Assembly (NCBI GenBank): GCA_964609095.1
Contig: CAZSQN010000001.1
Span: forward strand, 214,117 to 278,116
Source: an uncultured Gammaproteobacteria bacterium
GTDB taxonomy: Bacteria; Patescibacteriota; Patescibacteriia; CAZSQN01
Direction: 5' to 3'
Length of the DNA: 64,000 nt
The notes below the pieces were generated by a model. That model was not told the DNA's origin and ran no database searches. It worked only from the letters and a program-made list of their open reading frames with translations. Every line of letters begins with the position of its first letter. Position 1 is the stretch's first letter. Below, in pieces: positions 20 through 51,183 of this stretch. Both the position numbers and the translations under genes were made by a program.

Positions 20-1138
20 TTGCCTTGCGCCAATAACAGCCAATGCAATTACAGCGGTTCATGCAGGTCCACGACCATTACCCAGCCGGCCGGGTATCAA
101 AAAATTCAAGATGGAGCAGGCGCGTCTATTGGCTGGGATAATCGCGAAGAGGCGACTTTGAACGAGCAGCCGTTCGCGCCGGTTATTGGTTCGCCGGACA
201 TTTCCGCTTGCGACCTGCAAAGCCAGAAGTGCCGCTTGCAAGGGCTTGCCATTGGCATAAATGATTTTGATTGCGGCGCAAGTTCTGATTGTCCAACCGG
301 CTGGACCTGCGGCGCAAGGACAACCTTTGGAGGAGGCGGCGATACTTCCGGTTCAACCTGCGTGCCGCCGCGCGGAATTGACGCTAACGCGCTCTCTATC
401 AATAACCGCGTTTCAGGGGAACTGCGCGCCGCCGGCAGTTATCGCGCGATTTTGCGCTTTTACGCTTGGGCCGATCACAATACTATGCCTATAACTTCGC
501 GTTCGGTTGACTGGGGCGACGGATTAGTGGAAAAGACGGTTGATTCCAAATATAAAAATCACAAGCCGACCTGTTCCGCCGGGGATACTGATGATGGCGC
601 CGCCAAAGAGTGCGGCGGAATGCCCGGGCTAACCTGCGCCAAGCAGGCGGACTGCCCGGCCGGCACAGGGCTTTGCGTGCCGGTTGGAAGGTGTTCAAGT
701 TCGCGGACGCGCTGCGCCGTTAACGAGGATTGTCCGCTTGGAGGAAACGGCGTTGAACGATGCGTACTCTCCCGTTTTGGCAATTCCCCAGATGCCTGCG
801 ATGAACAATACTTTGAGTTTGAGCATACTTATGTCTGCAACCGCGAGCTTATGTCCAGATTGCCTGATTGCGTTGGCGCCGATCTTGACCCGACAAATAA
901 AAACGCGCCGCACACGGCTTGCGCCAGAGACCTTGACGGCAATGGTTCCGCTGATTCGTGCCTGTTCCGTCCCAAAGTTCAGGTGCGCGATAATTGGGGA
1001 TACTGCAACGGAATTTGTCCGTCAGTCGGCAGAGACGGCTCGCCCGGCGGTTTGCGCTGTTACGAATCCGAGTGCGATGCGCACCCAGGAGCATGGACGG
1101 GCTTTGGAGGATTTATCACCATTACTCCCAGGAATTAG
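20..1138 (+). CDS. Cysteine-rich secreted protein; the ORF opens at the window edge with a non-ATG codon, so the 5' end is probably outside the window
   Basis: 372-aa ORF with about 40 Cys in recurring C-P-x-G and CxxxC contexts, Gly-rich, no TM segment; sits directly upstream of the VirB6-like gene. Confidence 0.45.
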   Translation: MPCANNSQCNYSGSCRSTTITQPAGYQKIQDGAGASIGWDNREEATLNEQPFAPVIGSPDISACDLQSQKCRLQGLAIGINDFDCGASSDCPTGWTCGARTTFGGGGDTSGSTCVPPRGIDANALSINNRVSGELRAAGSYRAILRFYAWADHNTMPITSRSVDWGDGLVEKTVDSKYKNHKPTCSAGDTDDGAAKECGGMPGLTCAKQADCPAGTGLCVPVGRCSSSRTRCAVNEDCPLGGNGVERCVLSRFGNSPDACDEQYFEFEHTYVCNRELMSRLPDCVGADLDPTNKNAPHTACARDLDGNGSADSCLFRPKVQVRDNWGYCNGICPSVGRDGSPGGLRCYESECDAHPGAWTGFGGFITITPRN

Positions 1139-1141
1139 CTT

Positions 1142-3685
1142 ATGAAATTCTTTAAACACAAATTATCAGTTCCCATAGCCGTCGCGGTGTTCGCGGCTCT
1201 CGCGGTTGCGGTCTTTAGTTTTGCCAAGCCGGTTTGGGCGCAAGGATTCTTTAGCCAGTTTGGGGCGGCAAGCATAACAAGCATAGGAGATATCATCAGA
1301 ATAATTGTCGGCTCAATAGTGTTTATCTACGTTCATTTTATCGGCCTTCTTTTGCTTATTATCATCAATGTTCTGACGCAGGTGGCAAGTTATAATGATT
1401 TTGTAAACAGCGCGGTAGTGGTAAACGGCTGGGCAATTGTGAGAGACCTTTCTAATATGTTTTTTATCCTGATTTTGCTCTACATTGCCTTTGCCACGAT
1501 TTTGGGAGTGAGCGGAATGGACTGGAAACAGCGTCTGCCAAAATTGCTCATCTTTGCGATTCTTATAAACTTTACCCGCGTGATTGCCGGACTCGCCATT
1601 GATTTTGGCCAGGTGATAATGATTACTTTTGTCAATGGCTTCAAAGACGCGGCCGGAGGGAATTTTGCCGAACTTCTGGGCATTAAGGACATGCTTGAGG
1701 TTTCCGTGCCCGGCGGCCTGCAGCAGGCGCAGCAGATTGCCACCGGCAATGTTGGCGGCGCGGCCATTGACTTCTTGCAAGTGATAGGAGGCATGATCGG
1801 CGCCGCGCTTTTTGCAACCGTTGCCTTAATCGTGATTATTGCCATCACTCTTGTGCTTGTCTATCGCATGGTCATGCTCTGGATTTATGTTGTTCTTTCT
1901 CCGCTTGCTTTTATCCTGGGCGCTTTTCCGCAGGGAGAAAGTTATTATGCCCAGTGGTGGAAGCAGTTTACCAGCGCCATTGCCGTCGGGCCGCTTTTGG
2001 CATTTTTCTTGTGGCTTTCGCTTCTCTCCGTCGGTTCCATAACGCAAGGCATAAGCCAAACCGCGATTGCGGAATTGCAGGGGGGCCAATCGGCGGCGGC
2101 GCAGGTCTCCTGCGGCGCGAGTCAAATTTGCCAGCCGGACAATGTTCTTAAATTTATCATTGGCATCGGACTTTTGATGGGCGGGCTTACCATTTCGCAA
2201 TCAATGGCCGCTTCTGCCGGAGGAGGAATGGAAGGAATCGTGGGTTGGGCAAAGAAGGCTGCGCCCGGAGCAATGAAAAAGATAACCGGGGTTGCGGCCA
2301 TTCAGCGCGGATACGCGGCGTATAAGGCGCAGCGCGAAGAATATAAAAAAGGCGGGCTTGTCACGCAGATGGGAACACGAATGGGAGCGGGCACAAATGT
2401 CATATTCGGGTTGGGCTCAAAACGCGCGAAGCAGCAGCAAAGAAACGTGTTAGAAGCGGATTTAGAGAAGAAGAAATCATATATTGACCATCTCACTAAC
2501 GCGGATTTGGCCAAGCAGAGAACAACTGAGGCGTACGCAAAACTTGCCGATCGCGGAGCTCTGACGCGCGAGTTTATCGCCGAGCATGGTTTGGATCCAA
2601 AGATGATGGAAGCCGCGTTTATGCCCGGACTTGAAAAGAGCAAGAATTCTTTTAAGAAGAGTTTGAAAGCTACAAGCCCCAGCCATGCTTTTGATATGAG
2701 CGCGGATAAAGGAAGGGAAGAGGCAGCCGTCGCGGTAATTAAGGGTGAAACATCGCTTGATAAATTTGATCCCAAAGATCTTAATGCGGCTTTTGTCGCC
2801 AAAATCCAGCAAAAGGCCAGCTGGTCGGAAGAACGGTGGAATTCCGAAAAGAGCAAATTGGGCGTTGACGCGCAAGCTAATCTGCTCGGAGCGATGGCGG
2901 CCCATACGCAAAGCGTTGATTTGGGAAAAGTGAGCGGCGCGGATTTTGCCAAAGAATTGGCCTTGAAGCGGGTTGTGGCTAAAAGTATTTCTTTAGAAAA
3001 GGCGAATTTGGGCGCGTATAGTTATACCGATCCCGTGACGGGATTAAAAAAATCCGGAGACGCTTTGCGCGAATACGTGCGCGAGCAGGGCGAACGGTTG
3101 GCTATAACTGTTCCGCCGGACGAATTTGATAAACCGCAGATCGCCGCCGCCATCCAATTGGCAATGCCCGCTGTTGAATATGAAAAGTTCTTAAAAGCTT
3201 TATCGCCGGAGATTAAGGCAAAATACCAGTCGGGCGCCGGCAAGTTAGTCAGCGACCCCACGGCTCTGGGCTTCCTTACTAACGAAGAAAGGCGCAGAGT
3301 TCGCGAGCGTTCTATGGCCGCTGGCGCTGATTTTGGAACTGCTTATGACCAAGCTCCTGGCCGGCCGTGGCCATCTAATCCGTTGGCGGCAAGCGATTTT
3401 AGAGATTCGCTCAAGGGTTCAGAGGCCTCTAAGGTTGTCTTGAATATGAAAGTGCCTGACGTGTCGGCAACGGTCGCGTTTGATATCGTGGACAATCTTG
3501 ATCCCACGCAGTTTGTAGAGGCGGCCAAAGAAGCGGTGCGAACACGTAATAAAGAACAGCTGGATGTTTTGAGAAAGATTATGGCGGAGGTGGCCAGCGC
3601 TCCTGTCGTGCCGGGTTCAAATGCCGATAAGCTCAAAGCTAAGATGGCTGGTCCCACGCGAGCCCGCATCTTTGATGAAATCTAA
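1142..3685 (+). CDS. VirB6/TrbL-like polytopic membrane protein with a long hydrophilic C-terminal extension
   Basis: N-terminal ~350 aa contain a signal/TM segment followed by at least 6 strongly hydrophobic helices. C-terminal ~500 aa are charged and Lys-rich. RBS-like aggaa before the ATG. Clustered with PrgI-like and VirB4-like genes. Confidence 0.5.
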   Translation: MKFFKHKLSVPIAVAVFAALAVAVFSFAKPVWAQGFFSQFGAASITSIGDIIRIIVGSIVFIYVHFIGLLLLIIINVLTQVASYNDFVNSAVVVNGWAIVRDLSNMFFILILLYIAFATILGVSGMDWKQRLPKLLIFAILINFTRVIAGLAIDFGQVIMITFVNGFKDAAGGNFAELLGIKDMLEVSVPGGLQQAQQIATGNVGGAAIDFLQVIGGMIGAALFATVALIVIIAITLVLVYRMVMLWIYVVLSPLAFILGAFPQGESYYAQWWKQFTSAIAVGPLLAFFLWLSLLSVGSITQGISQTAIAELQGGQSAAAQVSCGASQICQPDNVLKFIIGIGLLMGGLTISQSMAASAGGGMEGIVGWAKKAAPGAMKKITGVAAIQRGYAAYKAQREEYKKGGLVTQMGTRMGAGTNVIFGLGSKRAKQQQRNVLEADLEKKKSYIDHLTNADLAKQRTTEAYAKLADRGALTREFIAEHGLDPKMMEAAFMPGLEKSKNSFKKSLKATSPSHAFDMSADKGREEAAVAVIKGETSLDKFDPKDLNAAFVAKIQQKASWSEERWNSEKSKLGVDAQANLLGAMAAHTQSVDLGKVSGADFAKELALKRVVAKSISLEKANLGAYSYTDPVTGLKKSGDALREYVREQGERLAITVPPDEFDKPQIAAAIQLAMPAVEYEKFLKALSPEIKAKYQSGAGKLVSDPTALGFLTNEERRRVRERSMAAGADFGTAYDQAPGRPWPSNPLAASDFRDSLKGSEASKVVLNMKVPDVSATVAFDIVDNLDPTQFVEAAKEAVRTRNKEQLDVLRKIMAEVASAPVVPGSNADKLKAKMAGPTRARIFDEI

Positions 3686-5671: not shown

Positions 5672-5675
5672 AAGA

Positions 5676-5750
5676 GGGTACAGGGGACAGGGTAGAGGGT
5701 ATAGTAAATTAAAAAACTAAACCCTAAACCCTAAACCCTAAACCCTAAAA
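5676..5750 (+). repeat. Heptamer-repeat leader element, CCCTAAA class (copy A): GGGTACAGGGGACAGGGTAGAGGGTATAG + spacer + (CCCTAAA)x4, ending ...AAAAATGTG
   Basis: Near-identical copy at 6451-6525; related copies at 39576-39643, 28572-28624 (minus) and 33101-33181 (minus), all abutting start codons. Confidence 0.8.
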
Positions 5751-6450: not shown

Positions 6451-6525
6451 GGTTATAGGGGACAGGGTAGAGGGTATAGTAAATTAAAAAACTAAACCCT
6501 AAACCCTAAACCCTAAACCCTAAAA
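6451..6525 (+). repeat. Heptamer-repeat leader element, CCCTAAA class (copy B), directly upstream of virB4-like
   Basis: GGTTATAGGGGACAGGGTAGAGGGTATAGTAAATTAAAAAACTAAACCCTAAACCCTAAACCCTAAACCCTAAAAATGTG; the in-frame start of the following gene is the GTG overlapping the terminal ATG. Confidence 0.8.
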
Positions 6526-6527
6526 AT

Positions 6528-8438
6528 GTGGCATTTAGACCGCTCCAAATTTTCAAGAAAAAACAGCCGGGGATAGTGGCTCCTGTTTTGGGCGAGGAGG
6601 CGCGCAAGGCGGAAGAAGCCAAAGCCAAATTGGAAAAGATCGCGCTTGAAGAAGAGCGCGTATATCGCCGCGGCGTTGTTTCTATCCGCGATATTATCGC
6701 TCCGGCCTCTCTTAAAGTTGACCCGTCAATGGTAGTTTTAGGCGACAATTATGTCCGCACTCTTTTTGTGCTTACTTATCCGAGATACATTTCCGTGGGC
6801 TGGTTTGCCCCGATATTGAATCTTTCCATGACGCTTGATGTGGGAATGTTTTTTTATCCCGTGCCGGCGGATATTATTTTGAAACAGTTAAAAAATAAAG
6901 TCGGCACATTGGAGGCGCAAATTATTTCTGATTCAGAAAAAGGCGCGCCGCGCGATCCGCTTCGCGAAACCGCGCTCCGCGATGTTGAAAGTTTGCGCGA
7001 TTCCTTAACCCAGGGCACCGAGCACTTCTTCCAATACGCGCTTTATGTGACTCTTTACGCCAAGAGCGCTGAAGAGCTGAACAAGCGCACGGAAGAGATA
7101 GAAACGCTCTTCGGCTCAAAACTTATCTACACTAAACGGACGTACTACCAATCAGAACAGGGTTTTAATTCTACCATTCCTCTTGGCAATGACGAGCTGA
7201 TGATAACCTTTAACATGAATTCATCTCCGATCGCCTCGTCGTTTCCTTTTATGTCGGCGGACCTTACTTCCGACGGGGGAGTGCTTTACGGCATCAATCG
7301 GCATAATAATTCTTTAATTTTATTTGACCGGTTTTCTCTGCAGAACGCCAATATGGTGGTGTTTGCCACTTCCGGCGCGGGCAAAAGCTACGCGGTCAAG
7401 CTGGAAGTTTTGCGGTCATTGATGATGGGAACAGATGTTATTATTATTGACCCGGAGATGGAGTACAAACATCTTTCCGACGCGGTAGGCGGCACTTATA
7501 TTTCCATTTCTTTGGCTTCGGAGAGCAAAATCAATCCTTTTGAACTGCCGCGGCCCGTGGGAGAGCAGATTAGCACGGAAGACATAATCAGAAGCGCGGT
7601 TATCACGGCCAAAGGCCTGCTGCGCATAATGTTTGGCGCCATCACCCCGGAAGAGGATTCCCTTGTAGACCGCGCCTTGCTTGAAACCTATGCCAAAAAA
7701 GACATTACGGCCGCATCTGATTTGACCAAAGTTGAACCGCCGATAATGCAGGATTTCGCGGAAGTGCTTGAAGGAATGGAGGGCACGGCCAATCTTGTTT
7801 TGAAAATTAAAAAATATACCGAAGGAACTTTTGCCGGCTTGTTTAACTCTCCCACCACGGTTGACCTTAAAAATCCTTTCGTTGTGTTTTCCGTGCGCGA
7901 TCTTGAGGATGAACTGCGGCCTATGGCCATTTACGCCATTGTCAATTTTATCTGGAATGTGGTTAGGAGCGAACGGAAAAAGAGAATCCTCGTTATTGAC
8001 GAGGCCTGGTGGCTGATGCAAAACGATGATTCCGCCAAGTTTATTTTCGCGCTGGTCAAGCGCTGCAGAAAATACTATTTGGGCATAACTACCATTACGC
8101 AGGATGTAAACGACTTTTTGCGTTCTCCATACGGCCAGGCCATAGTCACCAATTCTTCAATTCAGATGCTGTTAAAGCAATCGCCCGCGTCAATTGATTT
8201 GGTGCAAAAAACGTTTCTTTTGACCGAAGGGGAAAAGTATCTGCTCTTGGAGAGCGCGGTTGGCGAGGGCATATTTTTTGCCGGACCGCGGCACGCGGCC
8301 ATAAAGGTTGTGGCTTCTTACACCGAAGACCAGCTTATCACCACGGACCCGCGGCAATTATTGGAAATTGAACAAGCAAAGAAAGAATTTGAGGCGCAGT
8401 TAAAGGGCGGCGAACCGGAAGCGCCGGACATTGGATAG
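6528..8438 (+). CDS. virB4: VirB4/TraC-family type IV secretion ATPase
   Basis: Walker A (FATSGAGKSY) and Walker B (ILVIDEAWWLM) motifs, ~636 aa, typical VirB4 N-terminal region; GTG start overlapping the ATG of the upstream element. Confidence 0.8.
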   Translation: MAFRPLQIFKKKQPGIVAPVLGEEARKAEEAKAKLEKIALEEERVYRRGVVSIRDIIAPASLKVDPSMVVLGDNYVRTLFVLTYPRYISVGWFAPILNLSMTLDVGMFFYPVPADIILKQLKNKVGTLEAQIISDSEKGAPRDPLRETALRDVESLRDSLTQGTEHFFQYALYVTLYAKSAEELNKRTEEIETLFGSKLIYTKRTYYQSEQGFNSTIPLGNDELMITFNMNSSPIASSFPFMSADLTSDGGVLYGINRHNNSLILFDRFSLQNANMVVFATSGAGKSYAVKLEVLRSLMMGTDVIIIDPEMEYKHLSDAVGGTYISISLASESKINPFELPRPVGEQISTEDIIRSAVITAKGLLRIMFGAITPEEDSLVDRALLETYAKKDITAASDLTKVEPPIMQDFAEVLEGMEGTANLVLKIKKYTEGTFAGLFNSPTTVDLKNPFVVFSVRDLEDELRPMAIYAIVNFIWNVVRSERKKRILVIDEAWWLMQNDDSAKFIFALVKRCRKYYLGITTITQDVNDFLRSPYGQAIVTNSSIQMLLKQSPASIDLVQKTFLLTEGEKYLLLESAVGEGIFFAGPRHAAIKVVASYTEDQLITTDPRQLLEIEQAKKEFEAQLKGGEPEAPDIG

Positions 8439-8515
8439 AATCTGGAATATGGAATCTGGAATTTAGAAAAGAAAATTCTAAATTCTAAATTCTAAATTCT
8501 AAATTCAGTTCTACC
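8439..8515 (+). repeat. Heptamer-repeat leader element, ATTCTAA class: imperfect (GGAATNT)n arm + aagaaa + (ATTCTAA)x4, ending 8 nt before the ATG at 8516
   Basis: Arms are imperfect reverse complements; same architecture as the CCCTAAA class; related copy at 42981-43059. Confidence 0.75.
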
Positions 8516-25187: not shown

Positions 25188-26546
25188 TTATTTCAATATC
25201 TCCAGAGCTTCAGTGACGGAGTTGATTTGGATTAAGGATTCGGACGATTCAAGTTTCGCGGCTTTGGGCACGAGCGCGTATTTGAATCCGAGTTTTTGCG
25301 CTTCGCGCACCCGGCGTTCAATTTCTTTTACCGGACGGATTTCGCCGGAGAGGCCGACCTCGCCTATAGCAGTCATATCTTTGGGAAAGGGTCTGCCTAT
25401 ATAAGCGGAAGCGATTGAAGCAAGAATGCCGAGATCGGCGGCTGGCTCGCGTATTTTAAGTCCGCCGCCAACATTCACATGCACGTCGGTATGGTCTAAA
25501 TACAAGCCGGCGCGACGGGAAAGCACGGCTAAAATCAAGTCCAATTTTTTGGGGTCAATTCCGGAGGCGCGCCTTTGCGGATATCCCCAAGATGTCTTGT
25601 GAGTTAAGGCCTGGATTTCCGCCAAAAGCGGCCGTGTGCCCTCAAGGAGCACGGTAATCACAGAGCCGGGAATGGCTGTTTTTCTTTCTTGTATAAAAAG
25701 AGCCGAGGGATTGGGCACTTCCATAAATCCGTTTTCAGTATGATTAAAAATGCCGACTTCGTCTGTCGCGCCAAACCTGTTTTTGCTTGCGCGGAGCACT
25801 CTGAAGGAATGTTGAGAATCGCCTTCAAGAGTAAGTACGACATCAACCAAGTGTTCCAGCGATTTTGGTCCGGCAACCAGCCCGTCTTTTCTGACTTGAC
25901 CCACCAGAATTATCGGAAGATTATTTTGTTTTGCGGTTTCGGTTAAAATGCTTACGGCCGCGCGAATTTCTCTCGGCGAGCCGCTTTTGCCGCCCTCTGC
26001 CCGTAAGGTGTTTACGGAATCAATGATAGAAAGCGCCGGGCGTTCTTTGGCAATGGTGGCGGCGATAGAGGCGGCGTCGGTTTCATTAAGAAAAAGCACG
26101 GAGGAGCCGATGGCGTTAATTCTCGCGAATCTGGAATAAATTTGTTCGGCTGATTCTTCGCCGGAAGTATAGAGCACCGGCCCTGATTTTTTGGCAATCG
26201 TTCCGCACACTTGCGCGAGAAGCGTGGATTTGCCTATGCCCGGTTCTCCGGAGAGGAGTATCACGCTTCCGGCCGCGATTCCTCCGTCCAACACGCGGTC
26301 AAATTCGTTAATGCCGGTTTTTATGCGCGGGGATTTGGGTAAGGATATCTCTTGGAGGGATATTGGTTTTAAGGCAGGGACTGTTGAATTTGGAATTTGG
26401 AATTTGGAATTTGATATTTTAGATTCCATATTCAAGATTCTAGATTCTGATAAAGATCCCCATTCGCCGCATTCAAAACAACGCCCAGCCCACTTTGGGG
26501 TCTGCGCGTCGCATTTGGAACAGACATAAACAATGCTCGATTTCAT
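25188..26546 (-). CDS. radA: DNA repair protein RadA/Sms, carrying an in-frame heptamer-repeat insertion in the zinc-finger/ATPase linker
   Basis: C4 zinc ribbon CSKCDAQ...CFECGEW, Walker A GEPGIGKSTLL, Lon-like C-terminus. Residues ESRILNMESKISNSKFQIPNS are encoded by the repeat at 26386-26452. Confidence 0.85.
   Translation of the reverse strand: MKSSIVYVCSKCDAQTPKWAGRCFECGEWGSLSESRILNMESKISNSKFQIPNSTVPALKPISLQEISLPKSPRIKTGINEFDRVLDGGIAAGSVILLSGEPGIGKSTLLAQVCGTIAKKSGPVLYTSGEESAEQIYSRFARINAIGSSVLFLNETDAASIAATIAKERPALSIIDSVNTLRAEGGKSGSPREIRAAVSILTETAKQNNLPIILVGQVRKDGLVAGPKSLEHLVDVVLTLEGDSQHSFRVLRASKNRFGATDEVGIFNHTENGFMEVPNPSALFIQERKTAIPGSVITVLLEGTRPLLAEIQALTHKTSWGYPQRRASGIDPKKLDLILAVLSRRAGLYLDHTDVHVNVGGGLKIREPAADLGILASIASAYIGRPFPKDMTAIGEVGLSGEIRPVKEIERRVREAQKLGFKYALVPKAAKLESSESLIQINSVTEALEILK
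26386..26452. repeat. Heptamer-repeat hairpin element (GAATTTG/AGATTCT arms) inside the radA coding sequence
   Basis: gaatttggaatttggaatttggaatttgatattttagattccatattcaagattctagattctg; same architecture as the intergenic leader elements; translated in frame. Confidence 0.7.
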
Positions 26547-28630: not shown

Positions 28631-29839
28631 TTATTGCAATTTTATTCTATGCACGGCCTGCGTGCCGGTGTCGGTGAAATACAGCAGACGCTCGTTTTTG
28701 GAAACAATCAATTTATTGATGGAATAAGCGCCTTCCGGTTCGGCAATAAGCTGGTTCGCGCCCGTCTCTAAGTCAAGCCGGTAGATTAAATCCGCCGTAT
28801 CTGCCGAAAGCGAGGGTTGGAAGCCGATTCCTTCCGGCATTGTTTTAGGCACGGCGCAATAAATAATATTTTCATCGGCAAAAGCGCATTTATCGGCCCA
28901 AGTTGAAAGATTAAAACTGCGGCGTCCGGCGCCGATTTCGTCGCCCGAGGCAAGAGCCGTCCAAAGCTGCGGCCTGTAGCCGGTTGCTCCCGAATGGGTG
29001 CTCCAAAGCAGGCGTCTTCCGGAAGGCGACCAGAGCGGACGGAAATCCAGCCCGGCCGTCTCCAATCCCTTAAAATTTTCTCCATTCAAGCCGATAAGCA
29101 AAATTTCATTTCGGCTTAATCCAAGTTCGCGTCCGGTATCTGAAAAGGCAACAACTTGGTTGTTCGGCGACCAGCTGATTTTTACTTTATTGGCATTGTC
29201 GCCCAGCGGCTCTAAGACCCTGGCGTTTGAACCGTCGGCATCCACCGTCACCAGCCAGCGGTTTTCCGCGTCAATTCCCAAACTTTTTCCCACGATTTTT
29301 CCCCCGTCGGGAGAAAAATCAAAGTCCTCCCAGTGCTTGGGAAGCGTGACTGATTTTTCTGCTTCAAAATCGTAGACGATGTTGGAGCCGTCGGGAAATT
29401 CAATAACCGCGCGTTTGCCGTCTTTTGCCCATAGAACATTTTGGACGTTAAGAAAAGTTTTGCCGGAGAGTTCCACGGCCGTGCCGTCTTCGCGCAAACG
29501 GATGAATTTGCCGGACGAGCGGTCATAGGAAAGGAGCGTGGAACCGTCAGAAGAAATCGTCGTCCCGATTGTCGGCGCGGAAACAACGACAGAGGCGGCG
29601 GTAAGCCCCCCCCGCGCCACTGCGGACGGAGCGCCGCTTGGCGCGCCCAATCTTTCGGGCGGCCTTGGCGCTCCGGGCGCGGCCGGCGCTAATCCAGGTC
29701 TCGCGACGGGCCTTGCTCCGGGCGCAACTTCTTCAGGCGCCCGCCCTAAAGGCCTAAAAAATAAATAATAAATTCCAAAACCAAAACCAAAAGTTATAAA
29801 GGCAAAAAGCGCGATAATCAAAATTTTTCTTAGGTTCAT
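28631..29839 (-). CDS. Periplasmic beta-propeller protein (TolB-like, WD40/PD40-type repeats)
   Basis: Repeated WSP(N/S)G... blades and an N-terminal TM/signal; start at ATG 29839 (MNLRK) or GTG 29848. Confidence 0.55.
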   Translation of the reverse strand: MNLRKILIIALFAFITFGFGFGIYYLFFRPLGRAPEEVAPGARPVARPGLAPAAPGAPRPPERLGAPSGAPSAVARGGLTAASVVVSAPTIGTTISSDGSTLLSYDRSSGKFIRLREDGTAVELSGKTFLNVQNVLWAKDGKRAVIEFPDGSNIVYDFEAEKSVTLPKHWEDFDFSPDGGKIVGKSLGIDAENRWLVTVDADGSNARVLEPLGDNANKVKISWSPNNQVVAFSDTGRELGLSRNEILLIGLNGENFKGLETAGLDFRPLWSPSGRRLLWSTHSGATGYRPQLWTALASGDEIGAGRRSFNLSTWADKCAFADENIIYCAVPKTMPEGIGFQPSLSADTADLIYRLDLETGANQLIAEPEGAYSINKLIVSKNERLLYFTDTGTQAVHRIKLQ

Positions 29840-33100: not shown

Positions 33101-33181
33101 TGTTTTGAGGGTATAGGGTTTAGCGTTTAGGGTTTAGGGAAATTCACTAAACGCTATACGCTAACCGCTAAACGCTTTGGT
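33101..33181 (-). repeat. Heptamer-repeat leader element (copy E; GCGTTTA-type arm + CCCTAAA-type arm), filling the entire htpX-stop to clpC-start spacer
   Basis: Minus strand: TAA-ACCAAAGCGTTTAGCGGTTAGCGTATAGCGTTTAGTGAATTTCCCTAAACCCTAAACGCTAAACCCTATACCCTCAAAACA-ATG. Confidence 0.75.
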
Positions 33182-35068: not shown

Positions 35069-35497
35069 TTACCAGTACATTGTGATTTGCATACTAGTAA
35101 AATAACGCTGACCCCAAAATGTAACTTCTGTTTGCAACCCAGGGTTTTGGCTTTTTAGAAGTTTTACAACTTCATCCGCCACTATTCTATTTGTATTTTT
35201 ATCAGCAGTACAAAGGCCGCGTTCACCTCCCTCGGTATAGTCATTTTCTCCGGGGCCGCACCATTCAGGAGACCAGCTGGTCCAGATATCAAGACCAGCG
35301 ATGTTATGGCCAGTCTCGGCGTACGCTCGCGCTATCTCAATACACTTTGAATAAATTGTTGGAACGAATTGTTTTGCCTCTTCTATTTGTTGTAATCTCT
35401 TTTGTTCCTCTTGTTCTCCATGTTCTCTTTTAGCGGCGTTTTCCTTCTCTCTGTGTTTACGCGTAAGCATTTGTAATTCGTCTTTTAAAGGACACAT
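35069..35497 (-). CDS. Hypothetical protein
   Basis: 142 aa; charged N-terminus; C-terminal Trp/Cys-containing domain. Confidence 0.4.
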   Translation of the reverse strand: MCPLKDELQMLTRKHREKENAAKREHGEQEEQKRLQQIEEAKQFVPTIYSKCIEIARAYAETGHNIAGLDIWTSWSPEWCGPGENDYTEGGERGLCTADKNTNRIVADEVVKLLKSQNPGLQTEVTFWGQRYFTSMQITMYW

Positions 35498-35782: not shown

Positions 35783-35811
35783 CTTGACAACTTATCAACA
35801 ATCTGCTATTG
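35783..35811 (+). promoter_or_regulatory. Sigma70-like promoter (TTGACA-17-TATTGT) for the DGR target gene
   Basis: cTTGACAacttatcaacaatctgcTATTGTatg; RBS agaaagg 8 nt before the ATG at 35891. Confidence 0.5.
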
Positions 35812-35890
35812 TATGCTTACGATCAAGCTCTTTTGGGCGACCGAAATAGGTTCGGTTACCCTCAAAAACCAACAAAAGAAAGGCAGAACA

Positions 35891-36301
35891 ATGGACAAGA
35901 TAGTTCTTTCTCTCCCGACCGATCTCATCTACGACAAGCGCAAGGACGGCTGGACGCTTCTGGAAGATGCACCTTTGGTCGGCACGCCCATCCTGGAGCT
36001 CGCCGAGTTCCTCCGTGACAGCGAATCGTACGTGAACGGCGAGGTCATGCTTTCCCGAGCCAAGGAGCTCGGCAACCTGGCTGGTCAGCGCCACGCCGAG
36101 CGGATGCTCGCTTGTGCCAGTCAGATTCCCGAGAGTTGGCGAAGCTTCTACCTCGTCTTCCCCGGAACGGTCTGGCGGGGTGGGAGCGGCGGCCGCGGCG
36201 TTCCGTACCTCGACTGGGGCGGCGACGGGTGGAGCCTGTACTGGGATTGGCTTGGCCGCGACTGGTACGGGGACGGTCGCGTCGTCCGTCTCAGCAAGTA
36301 G
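35891..36301 (+). CDS. DGR target (variable) protein; the C-terminal ~43 aa are encoded by the variable repeat
   Basis: 137 aa from MDKIVLS. The C-terminus ...TVWRGGSGGRGVPYLDWGGDGWSLYWDWLGRDWYGDGRVVRLSK aligns with the TR-encoded ...LVWRDGSGNRNVPYLNWNGDKWNLNWNWLDNDWNRNNRVVRLGN. The GC-rich, A-depleted 3' end is expected after adenine mutagenesis. Confidence 0.7.
   Translation: MDKIVLSLPTDLIYDKRKDGWTLLEDAPLVGTPILELAEFLRDSESYVNGEVMLSRAKELGNLAGQRHAERMLACASQIPESWRSFYLVFPGTVWRGGSGGRGVPYLDWGGDGWSLYWDWLGRDWYGDGRVVRLSK
36169..36297 (+). repeat. DGR variable repeat (VR)
   Basis: Pairs with 36650-36778; differs only at positions where the TR has A. Confidence 0.8.
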
Positions 36302-36363
36302 CTGAACCTTGGGATCTTGAATCCTTGCCACGCTTGGATCCTTGATCCCTTGAAACCTTGGTC

Positions 36364-36397
36364 CTCGCACCTGCGTTATCGGTGCGAGGGCTTTTTC
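36364..36397 (+). terminator. Hairpin (ctcgcacc-tgcgttatc-ggtgcgag) + T5 downstream of the VR: terminator and/or DGR target-recognition stem-loop
   Basis: Seen directly, 60 nt after the target stop. Confidence 0.55.
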
Positions 36398-36649
36398 TAA
36401 ATTAGAAATTTCTGATATTCTATTCTTTGGATAGTAGGCTCTTAAGTTCACGGCTACGGCTTTGAACGGCCGAATTTCGAAATTAATAAACGCGGAGCGA
36501 AAGCGGGCAAGCCTTCTTTCGGAGTCGGTTATTAGTTTCTTTAAAATGAAGCTACTTGGTGCGAAATATTAGAGGGCTTTTAGGCCCCGAATTAGATTCA
36601 GCTCCGAGAGCAATCAAAGAGCGGTGATTTTGGCGATATTTCGTACATT

Positions 36650-36778
36650 GGTCTGGCGGGATGGGAGCGGCAACCGCAACGTTCCGTACCTCAACTGGAA
36701 CGGCGACAAGTGGAACCTGAACTGGAATTGGCTTGACAACGACTGGAACAGGAACAATCGCGTCGTCCGTCTCGGCAA
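36650..36778 (+). repeat. DGR template repeat (TR), AAC-codon rich
   Basis: Invariant template; TR adenines correspond to the variable VR positions. The spurious ORFs 36624..36929 (+) and 36552..36920 (-) are its translations. Confidence 0.8.
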
Positions 36779-36789
36779 CTCGCTTCGTT

Positions 36790-36815
36790 CTCCTCCGACA
36801 ACCGTCGGAGGAGTT
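36790..36815. terminator. 10-bp hairpin ctcctccgac-aacc-gtcggaggag + T-run directly after the TR and abutting the avd stop; bidirectional terminator or DGR RNA 3' structure
   Basis: Seen directly. Confidence 0.5.
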
Positions 36816-37222
36816 TATTTTTGGAGCCCCTTTATCCATCCTCCAAGCATTTTGCCGATTTCGTTTAAATGCTCCGAAAGCATAATGTATTTTTTGTTGT
36901 CTATATTTTTTAGCTCCCAAGCGATCTGAAGAAAGAATTTTAGCAAATTCAATTTTCCGCTTGCCTTATACAACAACGGCAATTTTTGTTCTTTGCTTAA
37001 AGAGCCGGAGATGAACAAGAGTTCTAAAATATCAAGAAAACAAAGTTCAATTTTTGTTCCCAGCGCGTATTTTGATTTTTTAGGAAGATGATTTTTAAAT
37101 TCATCCCAAAGCTTATATACCGAGACAAATCTTTGGATTATCGGTAGTGTGTGTGTGTGTGTGTGTGTGTGTGGAAGCTTTTTCTCTGATTCGTTTATAT
37201 TATGAAAATCCAATTGAGCCAT
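36815..37222 (-). CDS. avd: Avd-like accessory variability determinant (four-helix-bundle protein), encoded divergently to the RT. The N-terminal region contains a (HT)n stretch encoded by the (GT)13 microsatellite
   Basis: C-terminal EHLNEIGKMLGGWIKGLQK and internal KSKYALGTKIELCFLDILELL match the four-helix-bundle/Avd family as I recall it. 135 aa from the ATG at 37222, which overlaps the RT start by 21 nt on the other strand. Confidence 0.55.
   Translation of the reverse strand: MAQLDFHNINESEKKLPHTHTHTHTLPIIQRFVSVYKLWDEFKNHLPKKSKYALGTKIELCFLDILELLFISGSLSKEQKLPLLYKASGKLNLLKFFLQIAWELKNIDNKKYIMLSEHLNEIGKMLGGWIKGLQK
37147..37172. repeat. (GT)13 dinucleotide microsatellite
   Basis: tgtgtgtgtgtgtgtgtgtgtgtgtg, 30 nt upstream of the RT start codon and inside the avd 5' coding region. 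Confidence 0.95.
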
Positions 37223-38224
37223 AAGTTTGAAGATATAATTAGTATTGATAATCTGTTGGAAGCCTGGAAAGAGTTTGCGAAAGGGAAGAAGGGCAAGCGT
37301 GATGTTCAGGAGTTTTCTTTTCGTTTGATGGATAACATTCTGGCTTTAAACGCCGAACTTTTTAATCATACCTATTGCCATGGCGGGTATCAAGCATTTA
37401 ACATTTCCGACCCCAAGCCGAGGAATATCCATAAAGCCAGCGTGAGAGACCGTCTTTTGCACCATGCCATTTACAGAATTTTATATCCTTTTTTTGATAA
37501 AACCTTTATCAGCGATTCTTATTCGTGCCGGATTGATAAGGGAACGCACAAGGCCTTAAACCGTTTCCGTTCATTCGCTTATAAAGCCGGCAGAAACAAG
37601 ACCGGAACCTGTTGGGTATTAAAGTGCGATATCAGGAAGTTCTTTGCCAATATTAACCATGAGATTTTGCTAAACATCCTTAAGAGCTATATTCCGGACA
37701 AAGATATTCTATGGCTGCTCAATGAGATTATAGGGAGTTTTCATTCTTTCTCGCATGGTATTGGATTGCCGCTCGGCAACCTTACCTCCCAACTGCTTGT
37801 TAATATCTATATGAATGAGTTTGACCAGTTCGCGAAGCATAAGCTCAAAGTCAAATACTATATCCGCTATGCCGATGATTTTGCGATTTTGTCTCCAAAC
37901 AAGAGGGAGCTTGAAGAGTTGGTGTCTCAAATCGCTTTGTTTTTGGGCGAACGGCTAAAACTAACTCTTCATCCAAACAAGACCTTTATTAAAACTTTGG
38001 CTTCGGGCGTTGATTTTCTGGGTTGGGTGCATTTTAGCGACCATAGAGTGCTCCGAACCGCGACTAAGAGGAGGGTGATTGCCATGCTGAGGGAACACCC
38101 GGCTAAAGAAACCCGAGCTTCGTATCTCGGATTATTGAGTCATGGGAATACGAATCTCATTAAAGCAAAGATTTTGGATAAAAGAGATTTTTTGGACTTT
38201 ACGACTGATTTTATAGTAAAGTAA
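37202..38224 (+). CDS. DGR-type reverse transcriptase
   Basis: RT motifs including LPLGNLTSQ (the DGR-typical LGxxxSQ) and YADDF (YxDD); ~340 aa, no maturase/endonuclease extension; adjacent to the TR. Confidence 0.8.
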   Translation: MKIQLSHKFEDIISIDNLLEAWKEFAKGKKGKRDVQEFSFRLMDNILALNAELFNHTYCHGGYQAFNISDPKPRNIHKASVRDRLLHHAIYRILYPFFDKTFISDSYSCRIDKGTHKALNRFRSFAYKAGRNKTGTCWVLKCDIRKFFANINHEILLNILKSYIPDKDILWLLNEIIGSFHSFSHGIGLPLGNLTSQLLVNIYMNEFDQFAKHKLKVKYYIRYADDFAILSPNKRELEELVSQIALFLGERLKLTLHPNKTFIKTLASGVDFLGWVHFSDHRVLRTATKRRVIAMLREHPAKETRASYLGLLSHGNTNLIKAKILDKRDFLDFTTDFIVK

Positions 38225-38230
38225 AAAGGT

Positions 38231-39583
38231 ATGAAATTCCCTGTTTCCATATTTAAGGCCTACGACATAAGAGGCGAGTCGCCGGGCGAGATTACTTCAG
38301 AATTTGCCGAGCGGTTAGGCCGGGCGTTTCCTCATTTTACGGACGCCAAAACGGTTGTGGTTGGCCGCGACGCGCGCAAGACATCGCCGGAATTGGCAGA
38401 CGCGCTTATAAAAGGAATAATCTCGCAGGGCGTGGATGTGATTGATATTGGTATGGTTTCCACTCCCATGTTTTATTTTGCGGTCGGTGAATACGAGCTA
38501 CATGATGCCGGCATTATGGTGACGGCCTCGCATAATCCGGCAAAGTACAACGGGTTCAAGCTGGTGCGCGGTGACGCTTTTCCCATAGGCGCCAATTCCG
38601 GAATGTATGAGTTGCGGGATTTGGTCACCTCCGACGCCGAATTTCCGAACCAAAAAATCGGGAATGTTGTGGAGACGGATATTTCCGAAGCGTATTTGGA
38701 AAAGATTTTTTCTTTGGTTGATCCGGAGACATTAAAACAATTTAATTTGGCAATTGATAACGGCAACGGCATGGGCGGCGTTATCCTGCCGCGCTTGCTT
38801 AAAGCCATACCCGGATGGAACTCAGTTTTGTATATGGAGCCGGACGGCAATTTTCCAAACCACGAGGCCAATCCTTTGAAAGAAGAAACCCTTGACGATC
38901 TAAAAAAATTGATAAAAGAAAAAAAATCCGATCTGGGCGCGGCTTTTGACGGAGACGCTGACAGAATAGGATTTGTTGACGAGAACGGAGCAATCGTGTC
39001 TGGAGATTTGATTACCGGCATACTGGCGGCGCGAATTTTGGAAGAGCATCCCGGCAGTCCCGTCCTCTACGATGTTCGTTCCAGCTGGGCGACCAAAGAA
39101 GCGATTCTCGTGGCTGGCGGAAAGCCAATAATGTGTCCAGTGGGACACGCGCTGGTTAAAAAGATGCTCCGCGATACCGGCGCGGCCTTTGGCGGAGAAG
39201 TATCCATGCATTATTACTTCCGTGATTTTTACAATGGAATGGAGTCGTCTGACCTCGCGTTTTTGATTTTGCTTTCCATTTTAACTGATGCGGGCAAAAC
39301 GCTTTCCGAACTTGTCGCGCCGCATCGGAAATATTTCCATTCCGGGGAAATAAATTTTAAAGTGGAAGACAAAGAAGGAAAGTTTAAGGAGATTGAGGAA
39401 AAATATAAAAGCGGCGCCAAAGAGATTATCCGCATTGACGGAATACGAATGGAATTTAACGATTGGTGGCTTAATTTGCGCGCGTCCAATACCGAACCGC
39501 TGATGCGGCTCAATTTGGAGGCAAAATCAGAAAGCAAGATGCGTGAAATGAAAGAGGAAATAAGCAATTTATTAAGGGTATAG
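38231..39583 (+). CDS. Phosphoglucomutase/phosphomannomutase family protein
   Basis: Active-site TASHNP(A) (phosphoserine loop), Mg-binding DGDADR, ~450 aa. Confidence 0.75.
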   Translation: MKFPVSIFKAYDIRGESPGEITSEFAERLGRAFPHFTDAKTVVVGRDARKTSPELADALIKGIISQGVDVIDIGMVSTPMFYFAVGEYELHDAGIMVTASHNPAKYNGFKLVRGDAFPIGANSGMYELRDLVTSDAEFPNQKIGNVVETDISEAYLEKIFSLVDPETLKQFNLAIDNGNGMGGVILPRLLKAIPGWNSVLYMEPDGNFPNHEANPLKEETLDDLKKLIKEKKSDLGAAFDGDADRIGFVDENGAIVSGDLITGILAARILEEHPGSPVLYDVRSSWATKEAILVAGGKPIMCPVGHALVKKMLRDTGAAFGGEVSMHYYFRDFYNGMESSDLAFLILLSILTDAGKTLSELVAPHRKYFHSGEINFKVEDKEGKFKEIEEKYKSGAKEIIRIDGIRMEFNDWWLNLRASNTEPLMRLNLEAKSESKMREMKEEISNLLRV

Positions 39584-39643
39584 GGGATAGGGTAGAGGGT
39601 ATAGAAACTACTAAACCCTAAACCCTAAACCCTAAACCCTAAA
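39576..39643 (+). repeat. Heptamer-repeat leader element, CCCTAAA class (copy C), overlapping the PGM stop codon and ending at the murI ATG
   Basis: GGGTATAGGGGATAGGGTAGAGGGTATAGAAACTACTAAACCCTAAACCCTAAACCCTAAATTG-ATG. Confidence 0.8.
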
Positions 39644-42980: not shown

Positions 42981-43059
42981 TGAATTTGGAATCTGGAATC
43001 TTGAATTTTGATTTAATTAAATTCTAGATTCTAATTTCTAAATTCTAGATTCTTGAAAG
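42981..43059 (+). repeat. Heptamer-repeat leader element, ATTCTAA/GGAATNT class, upstream of pheT
   Basis: gaatttggaatctggaatcttgaattttgatttaattaaattctagattctaatttctaaattctagattcttgaaag-ATG. Confidence 0.75.
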
Positions 43060-51099: not shown

Positions 51100-51183
51100 A
51101 GCTTGTAGCTTTTAGCTGTTAGCTTTTAGTTGTTTTGGTTTATTTCTATCAGTTAAAAGCTAAAAGCTAAAAGCTTTTTTATT
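51100..51183 (+). repeat. Heptamer-repeat leader element, AAAAGCT class, upstream of thrS
   Basis: gagcttgtagcttttagctgttagcttttag...ttaaaagctaaaagctaaaagctttttt-att-ATG; arms are complementary. Confidence 0.75.

Follow-up and report, generated by a model that had tools for sequence, protein, structure and literature searches.

The 64-kb window analysed in this work (by which we mean the whole stretch of DNA, and not the element within it) very probably contains an intact chromosomal diversity-generating retroelement (DGR) of the type found in the Candidate Phyla Radiation (CPR), residing in a Candidatus Uhrbacteria genome. Its components follow one another as a target gene that ends in the variable repeat (VR), the template repeat (TR, 36650-36778, forward strand), a reversed avd gene (accessory variability determinant, 36815-37222, reverse strand) and the gene of the reverse transcriptase (RT, 37202-38224, forward strand), which is the order known as architecture B3. 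The original prediction, made from the letters alone, had called this DGR complete; all the parts are indeed present, including the minus-strand avd that it had overlooked. Proteins with 100% identity to the target protein, Avd and RT are encoded by the Candidatus Uhrbacteria metagenome-assembled genome (MAG) GCA_016181485.1 (contig JACOZF010000007.1). In GenBank the target has the label of a hypothetical protein, Avd that of a 'four helix bundle protein' (MBI2098970.1) and the RT that of a 'group II intron reverse transcriptase domain-containing protein'.

The first line of evidence comes from the comparison of the two repeats. The VR (36169-36297, forward strand) makes up the final 43 codons of the target gene, and the TR, which contains 33 adenines, starts 352 nt 3' of the VR, where no credible open reading frame (ORF) exists. 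Both are 129 nt long and lie at an offset of 481 nt, as originally predicted and as borne out by a repeat search, which extends the pair to 36169-36303 and 36650-36784 (135 nt, 82% identity, spacing 481), and by a base-by-base tabulation; no third copy of the repeat occurs within the 64-kb window. The original prediction had counted 21 mismatches, none of them outside the adenines of the TR. This is true up to position 36292, but the tabulation over 36169-36297 gives 22 mismatches, of which 21 have A in the TR. The only other one (VR A, TR G, at 36293/36774) is located 5 nt before the end of the interval and 17 nt past the last mutated adenine (36276), directly after an identical GC-rich block (36277-36292). 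Thus, when the repeats are aligned by software, the mismatches fall on TR adenines except for one in the zone that resembles the initiation of mutagenic homing (IMH) sequence. The probability of at least 21 out of 22 mismatches falling on adenines by chance is about 6e-12 (binomial, 33 A in 129 nt). The mutated positions extend from 36180 to 36276, and over the mutagenic span of 108 nt there are no non-A mismatches and the flanks are identical. The VR differs from the TR at 21 of the 33 adenines (18 A>G, 2 A>T and 1 A>C), and in the target frame all 21 of these changes are at the first or second position of a codon.

Read in the frame of the VR, the TR encodes the peptide NWNGDKWNLNWNWLDNDWNRNN, with 10 AAC and two AAT codons, in agreement with the description of the template as rich in Asn(AAC), and the number of reachable protein variants is about 1e18. 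Beyond the GC-rich block the tails of the repeats diverge (AGCAAGTAGCT in the VR versus GGCAACTCGCT in the TR), and inverted repeats are found at 36311-36349 and 36360-36392. Judging by the sequence, the block at 36277-36292 together with the diverging tail up to ~36303 fits an IMH-like element and resembles the IMH/IMH* ends of DGRs.

The second line of evidence comes from the proteins. The RT (340 aa) matches RVT_1 with an E-value of 2e-25 and contains LPLGNLTSQ and YADD, so both the DGR-type motif (LGNLTSQ) and the YADD box named in the original prediction are there. Its best match in the PDB is the RT of the Bordetella phage DGR (bRT, 8ub7; E 3e-39, 139 bits), with group II and retron-type RTs reaching at most 87 bits. 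At least 7996 homologues are found with E < 1e-60, and the organism names among the 120 matches listed are all CPR/Patescibacteria or a generic 'bacterium'. PADLOC returns generic RT and DRT-like matches and no system call for this protein. The avd gene, situated between the TR and the RT gene, encodes a protein of 135 aa that scores 52 bits against PF22296 (bAvd, cut-off 40) and 78.8 bits against NF033474 (DivGenRetAVD, cut-off 80), the latter over profile positions 1-104 of 104. The homology to Avd begins at residue 26, and the first 25 residues, including HTHTHTHT, constitute a repeat-containing extension. The first 21 nt of the RT gene overlap the start of avd on the opposite strand.

Relatives of this element were found by scans of genomes and metagenomes (18-sequence alignment) and by look-ups of contigs. 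About 14 independent relatives share the order of target with VR, TR, reversed avd and RT, and their VR/TR differences are essentially restricted to adenines: the mismatches comprise 190 A>G, 70 A>C and 51 A>T (311 A>N) versus 16 others, in totals taken over 18 tabulated loci that include duplicate copies of some contigs. The A>G changes prevail here (18/21), in the locus L065 (30/34) and across the relatives (61%), and this excess suggests either a misincorporation bias of the RT clade or selection. One of the relatives, L062, is a second DGR of the same genome with the same layout (JACOZF010000009.1, locus coordinates 1052-3505). Its RT is 80% identical to the RT of the window, its avd (137 aa) is in frame through a G10 tract, its target (197 aa) is unrelated, and its 15 VR/TR mismatches are confined to adenines. 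It is conceivable that each of the two DGRs makes use of the Avd, RT or template RNA of the other.

The TR is enclosed by a structured RNA that is supported by covariation. Among loci with differing TRs, 130 nt upstream and 10 nt downstream of the TR are conserved, and a consensus structure of this region was calculated with RNAalifold from 14 independent loci. It includes a structured leader at 36546-36649, all elements being on the forward strand. The helix P1, in which 36546-36552 pairs with 36781-36787 (GCTTCGT), encloses the leader together with the entire TR in a single domain and shows compensatory changes in four of its seven pairs. Inside it are the 12-bp helix P2 (36559-36570 pairing with 36635-36646), the hairpin P3 (36574-36587) and the helix P4 (36601-36605 pairing with 36618-36622), while an invariant single-stranded segment, CTACTTGG, occupies 36552-36559. 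In the consensus structure 95.8% of the cells are paired, compared to 40-48% when the partners are slid by 1-3 columns; 21 of the 31 pairs are changed on both sides, compared to 3-6 with slid partners; and none of 500 shuffles attains the observed values. The window keeps all 31 pairs, and when its sequence is folded by itself (minimum free energy), P1-P3 and the terminal stem-loop are found again (z = -2.95). Each DGR locus has exactly one copy of an invariant 13-mer, AAGCTACTTGGTG, on the strand of the TR. No Rfam family matches the region of the TR RNA.

Downstream of the TR, a terminator scan identifies a 10-bp stem-loop with a 4-nt loop, followed by a T-run (36790-36822, stem-loop 36790-36813, forward strand; fold z = -4.1). 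This corresponds to one of the two hairpins with a T-run that the original prediction had placed after the VR and after the TR, and both of them are present (36360-36392 and 36790-36813). The stem is maintained in all relatives although its sequence differs, and the sequence features suggest that it is probably the 3' end of the TR RNA. In the Bordetella phage, cDNA synthesis depends both on a duplex between the RNA just upstream of the TR and the downstream spacer ('cPRT Stop') and on a stem-loop immediately 3' of the TR that binds Avd (bioRxiv 10.1101/2023.10.23.563531). P1 and the stem-loop at 36790-36813 look like the counterparts of these two elements; by analogy with the Bordetella phage DGR RNA (bioRxiv 10.1101/2023.10.23.563531), 36790-36813 becomes a candidate Avd-binding stem-loop, and we infer that a rearranged RNA may serve the same job here. 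A promoter for the TR RNA or for the RT was looked for, and none could be assigned.

The target gene (35891-36301, forward strand) starts with the ATG at 35891, as do its homologues, which begin at the same MDK, and encodes 136 aa followed by a stop codon. It has no sequence-family match, and in an inspection of the sequence by eye no signal peptide or transmembrane segment was evident. Structure prediction nonetheless models the protein confidently as a divergent C-type-lectin-like fold; a comparison of the target with such folds had been named as a check in the original prediction. Its size had been given there as ~137 aa and considered small for a DGR target with the C-type-lectin fold; the former is nearly exact, but small targets devoid of recognizable domains are typical of CPR DGRs (PMC5758913, PMC8144416). 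The GC content of the target (60-67% over 35900-36300) differs from that of avd and RT (32-42% over 36800-38000) and of the neighbouring genes (45-55%).

The 3' flank of the target gene contains two further elements. Directly after the stop codon, six CTTGG/CTTGA motifs form an array with period 8 according to TRF (36308-36361, forward strand), which here folds as an imperfect hairpin (36311-36349). Among the 14 loci the density of CTTGG is 23.8/kb in the 90 nt 3' of the VR, as compared to 1.15/kb elsewhere, and the reverse complement of the motif does not occur a single time in these 90 nt. CUUGG is also found within the invariant single-stranded segment of the leader. It is tempting to speculate that the array might play a role in target recognition. 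The array is followed by a GC-rich 12-bp hairpin with a T-run (36360-36397, hairpin 36360-36392, forward strand; fold z = -5.4 for 36300-36402), which has an equivalent 3' of the VR in the relatives and which could act as the terminator of the target gene and/or as the inverted repeat downstream of the IMH.

Many homologues of the 136-aa target also occur without a detected RT or avd nearby (L002, L005, L013-L015, L020, L023, L037, L040, L047 and L052), in neighbourhoods that were examined up to 4-5 kb per side and often less; by their sequence context these targets are orphan or remote ones. One of them, L052 (P0005, with 83% identity to the target of the window), has a truncated VR; its ORF runs into the CTTGG region, and FtsW and MurG are encoded downstream.

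Taken together, these elements suggest the following course of events. The TR would be transcribed on the forward strand as part of a structured RNA of ~280 nt (36546 to ~36822), in which the structure follows from covariation and the ends of the transcript are predicted; the three-helix leader and the closing helix P1 would bracket the TR, and the stem-loop with the U-run would end the RNA. By homology to the Bordetella phage system, RT and Avd would then associate with this RNA, and in the reverse transcription of the TR into cDNA they would misincorporate nucleotides opposite the adenines. The cDNA would subsequently replace the VR up to the IMH-like block at 36277-36292, a step whose outcome is directly visible in the sequence as the changes at 21 of the 33 TR adenines. 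Recoding could thereby give up to ~1e18 variants of the C-terminal face of the C-type-lectin-like target.

Among the systems described to date, the closest are the CPR-type DGRs (architecture B3, clade 2). According to Wu et al. 2018 (PMC5758913), 90% of the CPR DGRs have the B3 arrangement TR-(avd)-RT. The CPR DGRs belong to clade 2 (Patescibacteria), whose targets are typically without transmembrane or other recognizable domains (Roux et al. 2021, PMC8144416). Since both the B3 layout and the clade-2 targets have been published, the features of the window that might be thought odd represent the norm of the clade; accordingly, we rejected the reversed avd, dominant in CPR (PMC5758913), and the small signal-less target, typical of clade 2 (PMC8144416), as candidates for unusual traits. 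The element shares with the CPR-type DGRs the gene order, the reversed avd, the chromosomal setting in a CPR genome, the small domain-less target, the adenine-specific mutagenesis, the AAC-rich codons of the TR and the membership of its RT in a very large family. Nothing in it is different in kind from its CPR-type relatives, and its locus-specific traits are a (GT)13.5 repeat in place of a poly-G tract and the loss of a start-capable avd codon, to both of which we return below.

The comparison with the DGR of the Bordetella phage BPP-1 (mtd, avd, TR, brt) reveals likenesses as well as differences. Both have homologous RTs (bRT, E 3e-39), both have Avd, and in both the gene for a target with the C-type-lectin fold (modelled in our case) has the VR at its 3' end, and an inverted repeat follows a GC-rich IMH-like block. 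In both, the RNA flanks of the TR pair together (cf. the avd:Sp 'cPRT Stop' duplex), and a stem-loop is situated just 3' of the TR. However, avd of the window lies on the opposite strand, downstream of the TR, and hence the RNA upstream of the TR is non-coding, unlike in BPP-1. Moreover, the window has a structured domain of ~100 nt (P2-P4) 5' of the TR and only ~45 nt of RNA 3' of it, ending in a U-run, whereas BPP-1 has a 140-nt 3' spacer. The target of the window is a chromosomally encoded protein of 136 aa, whereas the BPP-1 system is phage-borne and its target, Mtd, has 381 aa. The DGR variable proteins with the C-type-lectin fold, such as Mtd (1yu0) and TvpA (2y3c), are among the closest known systems to the target.

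As a DGR, the element is one more example of a class that has been catalogued in thousands. Its value lies in being a compact, complete and well-delimited representative of the CPR type, with a length of 2.4 kb and a single-domain target of 136 aa. The leader with its closing helix, the CTTGG array and the repeat in avd provide testable elements for template recognition, target-site finding and regulation, respectively, in this type of DGR. No description of the structured leader, the P1 helix, the CTTGG array after the VR or the avd tract was found in the literature searched, and the leader RNA, the array and the tract appear to be undescribed there.

The repeat in avd deserves separate consideration. 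According to TRF, a (GT)13.5 repeat occupies 37147-37173, inside the avd frame and 29 nt upstream of the RT start, and no other dinucleotide repeat of at least six units occurs in the 64 kb. The relatives all have a tract of G7-G12 at this position between avd and RT. Runs of G or C of at least 7 are otherwise found about once per 20 kb in these loci; GGG is present in 15 of the 19 RT homologues called with N-terminal extensions. The length of the tract varies, in comparisons that rest on assemblies and not on reads. Between two near-identical contigs, G10 versus G9 is the sole difference in 7.8 kb. Seven contigs that are 99.1-99.9% identical have C7, C7, C7, C9, C8, C8 and C8, with the tract among their few indels. 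The GT tract has 27 nt in the window, whereas a Logan contig with a sequence identical to it breaks off within the tract, whose length there is 29 nt or more. An exact look-up of the RT of the window returned only the source contig, so that it offers no independent view of the repeat, and a cluster look-up of Avd returned no length variants.

The position of the tract bears on the question of where the translation of avd begins. The codon beside the Avd domain is TTG in most loci and CTA, CTG, TTA or CCA in others, and in view of this variation it is not a conserved start. In the window the start-capable TTG is replaced by CTA, and therefore the ATG at 37222, read through (GT)13.5 as HTHTHTHT, is the only start of avd. 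In 9 of the 14 loci the corresponding ATG across the tract, antisense to the His-7 codon of the RT, shares the frame of avd; in the other five it is shifted from that frame by 1-2 nt. It follows that a change in the repeat length by other than a multiple of 3 nt would, as we propose, switch off Avd and the DGR together with it. This is a less certain layer of the mechanism outlined above.

In two relatives, L004 (1430-1480) and L029 (5128-5190), the RT has no ATG at the usual position and its frame is open through a G9 tract (GGG) as far upstream as a TTG, which overlaps with the start codon of avd on the opposite strand; a single tract is therefore coding in both divergent genes. We also considered the poly-G tract as a mimic of the Shine-Dalgarno sequence for the RT, which is unlikely, since the 3' end of the tract is 16-29 nt away from the ATG. 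In L065-L071, avd is split into ORFs of 75-93 aa and 40 aa at a T7 run (~1415-1430 in L065) in all seven contigs, which by its sequence is either a pseudogene or a second slippery site; two of these contigs nonetheless have VRs that differ at TR adenines.

The repeat in avd looks like a contingency locus that may gate Avd. As in the case of the poly-G tracts in genes of Campylobacter and Neisseria, a dinucleotide repeat or a homopolymer with 7-12 units is situated in the 5' part of a coding region and between divergent genes, sequences that are otherwise identical vary in its length, and alleles in the ON-frame and in the OFF-frame both occur. Haemophilus influenzae provides another example of such a locus, the (TA)n repeat that lies between its divergent genes hifA and hifB. 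On the other hand, the gene concerned here encodes an accessory factor of targeted hypermutation and not a surface structure or a restriction-modification enzyme, and the switching is only predicted. We therefore put forward the following as a tentative proposal, plausible rather than probable: CPR-type DGRs may carry a contingency switch in the form of poly-G or (GT)n in avd and in some RTs; their template RNA would be rearranged with respect to that of Bordetella, with a 5' leader closed onto the 3' flank of the TR; and a CTTGG array that shares its core with the CUUGG of the leader would perhaps participate in target recognition. If the repeat indeed gates Avd, one mutator would stochastically gate another, and this would account for the static appearance of many natural DGRs in metagenomes. 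To our knowledge, there would be no earlier case of a targeted hypermutation system under phase-variable control.

Alternatively, the tract may not be a switch at all, and we regard this as very nearly an even call. The poly-G could be a fixed cis-element, such as a part of the promoter or 5' leader for the RT or avd, and (GT)n a neutral microsatellite in a dispensable N-terminal extension. Consistent with this, the tract is G-rich in nearly all relatives and is accompanied by a conserved flank, GTTGGGG...CGTAGAAG; 9 of the 14 tabulated avd entries have a TTG and one has a GTG after the tract, a possible start independent of it; and no repeat-based phase variation of DGRs, nor any paper linking the two, was found in the literature searched. 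However, the substitution of poly-G by (GT)n at the same position argues for a conservation of the instability rather than of the sequence. The length is polymorphic in three of the six lineages represented by several near-identical contigs, where it is the main or only indel; five loci lack a canonical start at the codon beside the Avd domain; and the RTs of L004 and L029, lacking their own ATG, are read through the tract from the upstream TTG. Finally, 9 of the 14 loci have the start across the tract in frame, where one third would be expected by chance (P ~0.02 by our own binomial estimate).

Several observations weigh against the interpretation as an intact DGR, or against the less certain layer of a switch acting on Avd. 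The differences in repeat length between assemblies could partly be due to errors of sequencing or assembly. Most relatives keep the TTG beside the Avd domain, which could free Avd from the tract, and the second DGR of the same genome (L062, with an RT 80% identical) could supply Avd in trans. The NCBIfam score of Avd falls 1.2 bits under the cut-off. Furthermore, no VR variation was seen at this locus: the MAG and five Logan contigs from other runs encode an identical target, and the two of these Logan contigs that were compared as DNA are 100% identical to the window, although all of these are consensus assemblies, which hide minority variants.

Because the VR is identical in the six assemblies, the present-day activity of the DGR of the window is unproven, and the possibility must be considered that it has recently been inactivated or lies dormant, with recognizable parts, a frozen VR and an avd that has no start of its own and is becoming a pseudogene. 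Apart from the identity of the target protein and hence of the VR, this would agree with the replacement of TTG by CTA beside the Avd domain, which makes translation depend on a slippery repeat, and with the decay observed in relatives, namely the avd split at the T7 run in L065-L071 and the truncated VR of L052, which has no RT in ~6 kb downstream (with only 146 nt examined upstream). Nonetheless, we consider dormancy unlikely: all the ORFs are open, avd is in frame as assembled, the catalytic motifs of the RT are intact, the mutagenic span of 108 nt between identical flanks has accumulated no non-A mismatch, all 31 RNA pairs are kept, and minority VR variants would be hidden in consensus assemblies. 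In the population of L001 and L016-L018 the VR is likewise constant. On the other hand, L065 and L069, which are 99.1% identical and belong to the same lineage as L063 (RT ~76% identical to that of the window), differ at 21 VR sites, 19 of which are at TR adenines. Since their VRs differ mainly at these positions, the clade performs mutagenic homing in nature.

The remaining alternative, in which the repeats would stem from an ordinary duplication or be a tract of gene conversion next to an RT of the group II intron or retron type, with a coincidental adenine bias, is in line with the NCBI label of the RT as a group II intron reverse transcriptase and with its best NCBIfam match by score (group_II_RT_mat, TIGR04416), but we consider it refuted and its probability negligible, since this match reaches only 150 bits against a cut-off of 300 and covers only profile positions 3-272 of 353, the retron score (56 against 235) and the scores of the DRT families also stay below their cut-offs, Rfam returns no group II intron or retron RNA at the gathering threshold in the window or at E <= 1 around the locus, the best solved relative is bRT, avd adjoins, and the adenine restriction (P ~6e-12) recurs in every relative. 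In addition, we take an RT of 340 aa to be too short to include the maturase or endonuclease domain of group II. The profile and structure-database scores together place the RT nearest to bRT (8ub7) and far from the group II and retron RTs, so that the interpretation of the locus as a DGR, as originally predicted, is upheld by the mismatches at TR adenines, the bRT-like RT, the lack of intron or retron RNA matches and the lectin-like model of the target.

The genes that flank the element encode LemA, phosphoglucomutase, glutamate racemase, a Clp-type ATPase and HtpX-like and RseP-like proteases (the last three read from translations). Given these housekeeping neighbours, the element is chromosomal. 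The target gene is preceded by a promoter-like site (35784-35812, forward strand), which consists of TTGACA, 17 nt and TG-TATTGT; it was recognized by its match to the consensus only (10/12, plus the TG of an extended -10). Between LemA and the target there is an ORF of 142 aa on the minus strand (35069-35497), which has no Pfam match and is kept beside the target in the Logan contig L054. Elsewhere in the window, a minus-strand ORF of 405 aa with a PD40/WD40-like beta-propeller repeat includes a C8 tract (G8 on the coding strand) at 29606-29613. This tract is the only other G/C homopolymer of at least 7 in the window, and for this reason the 405-aa ORF may be phase-variable. Finally, many intergenic regions of the window contain paired tandem arrays of heptamers, for example (AGGGTTT)n followed by (CTAAACG)n, in which the two arrays are roughly reverse complements of each other (5675-5749, 6492-6524, 8438-8506, 26386-26448, 33108-33176, 39575-39643, 42982-43053 and 51100-51175). 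Such pairs would form long hairpins between genes and may constitute a genome-wide family of terminators or repeats in this Uhrbacteria lineage.

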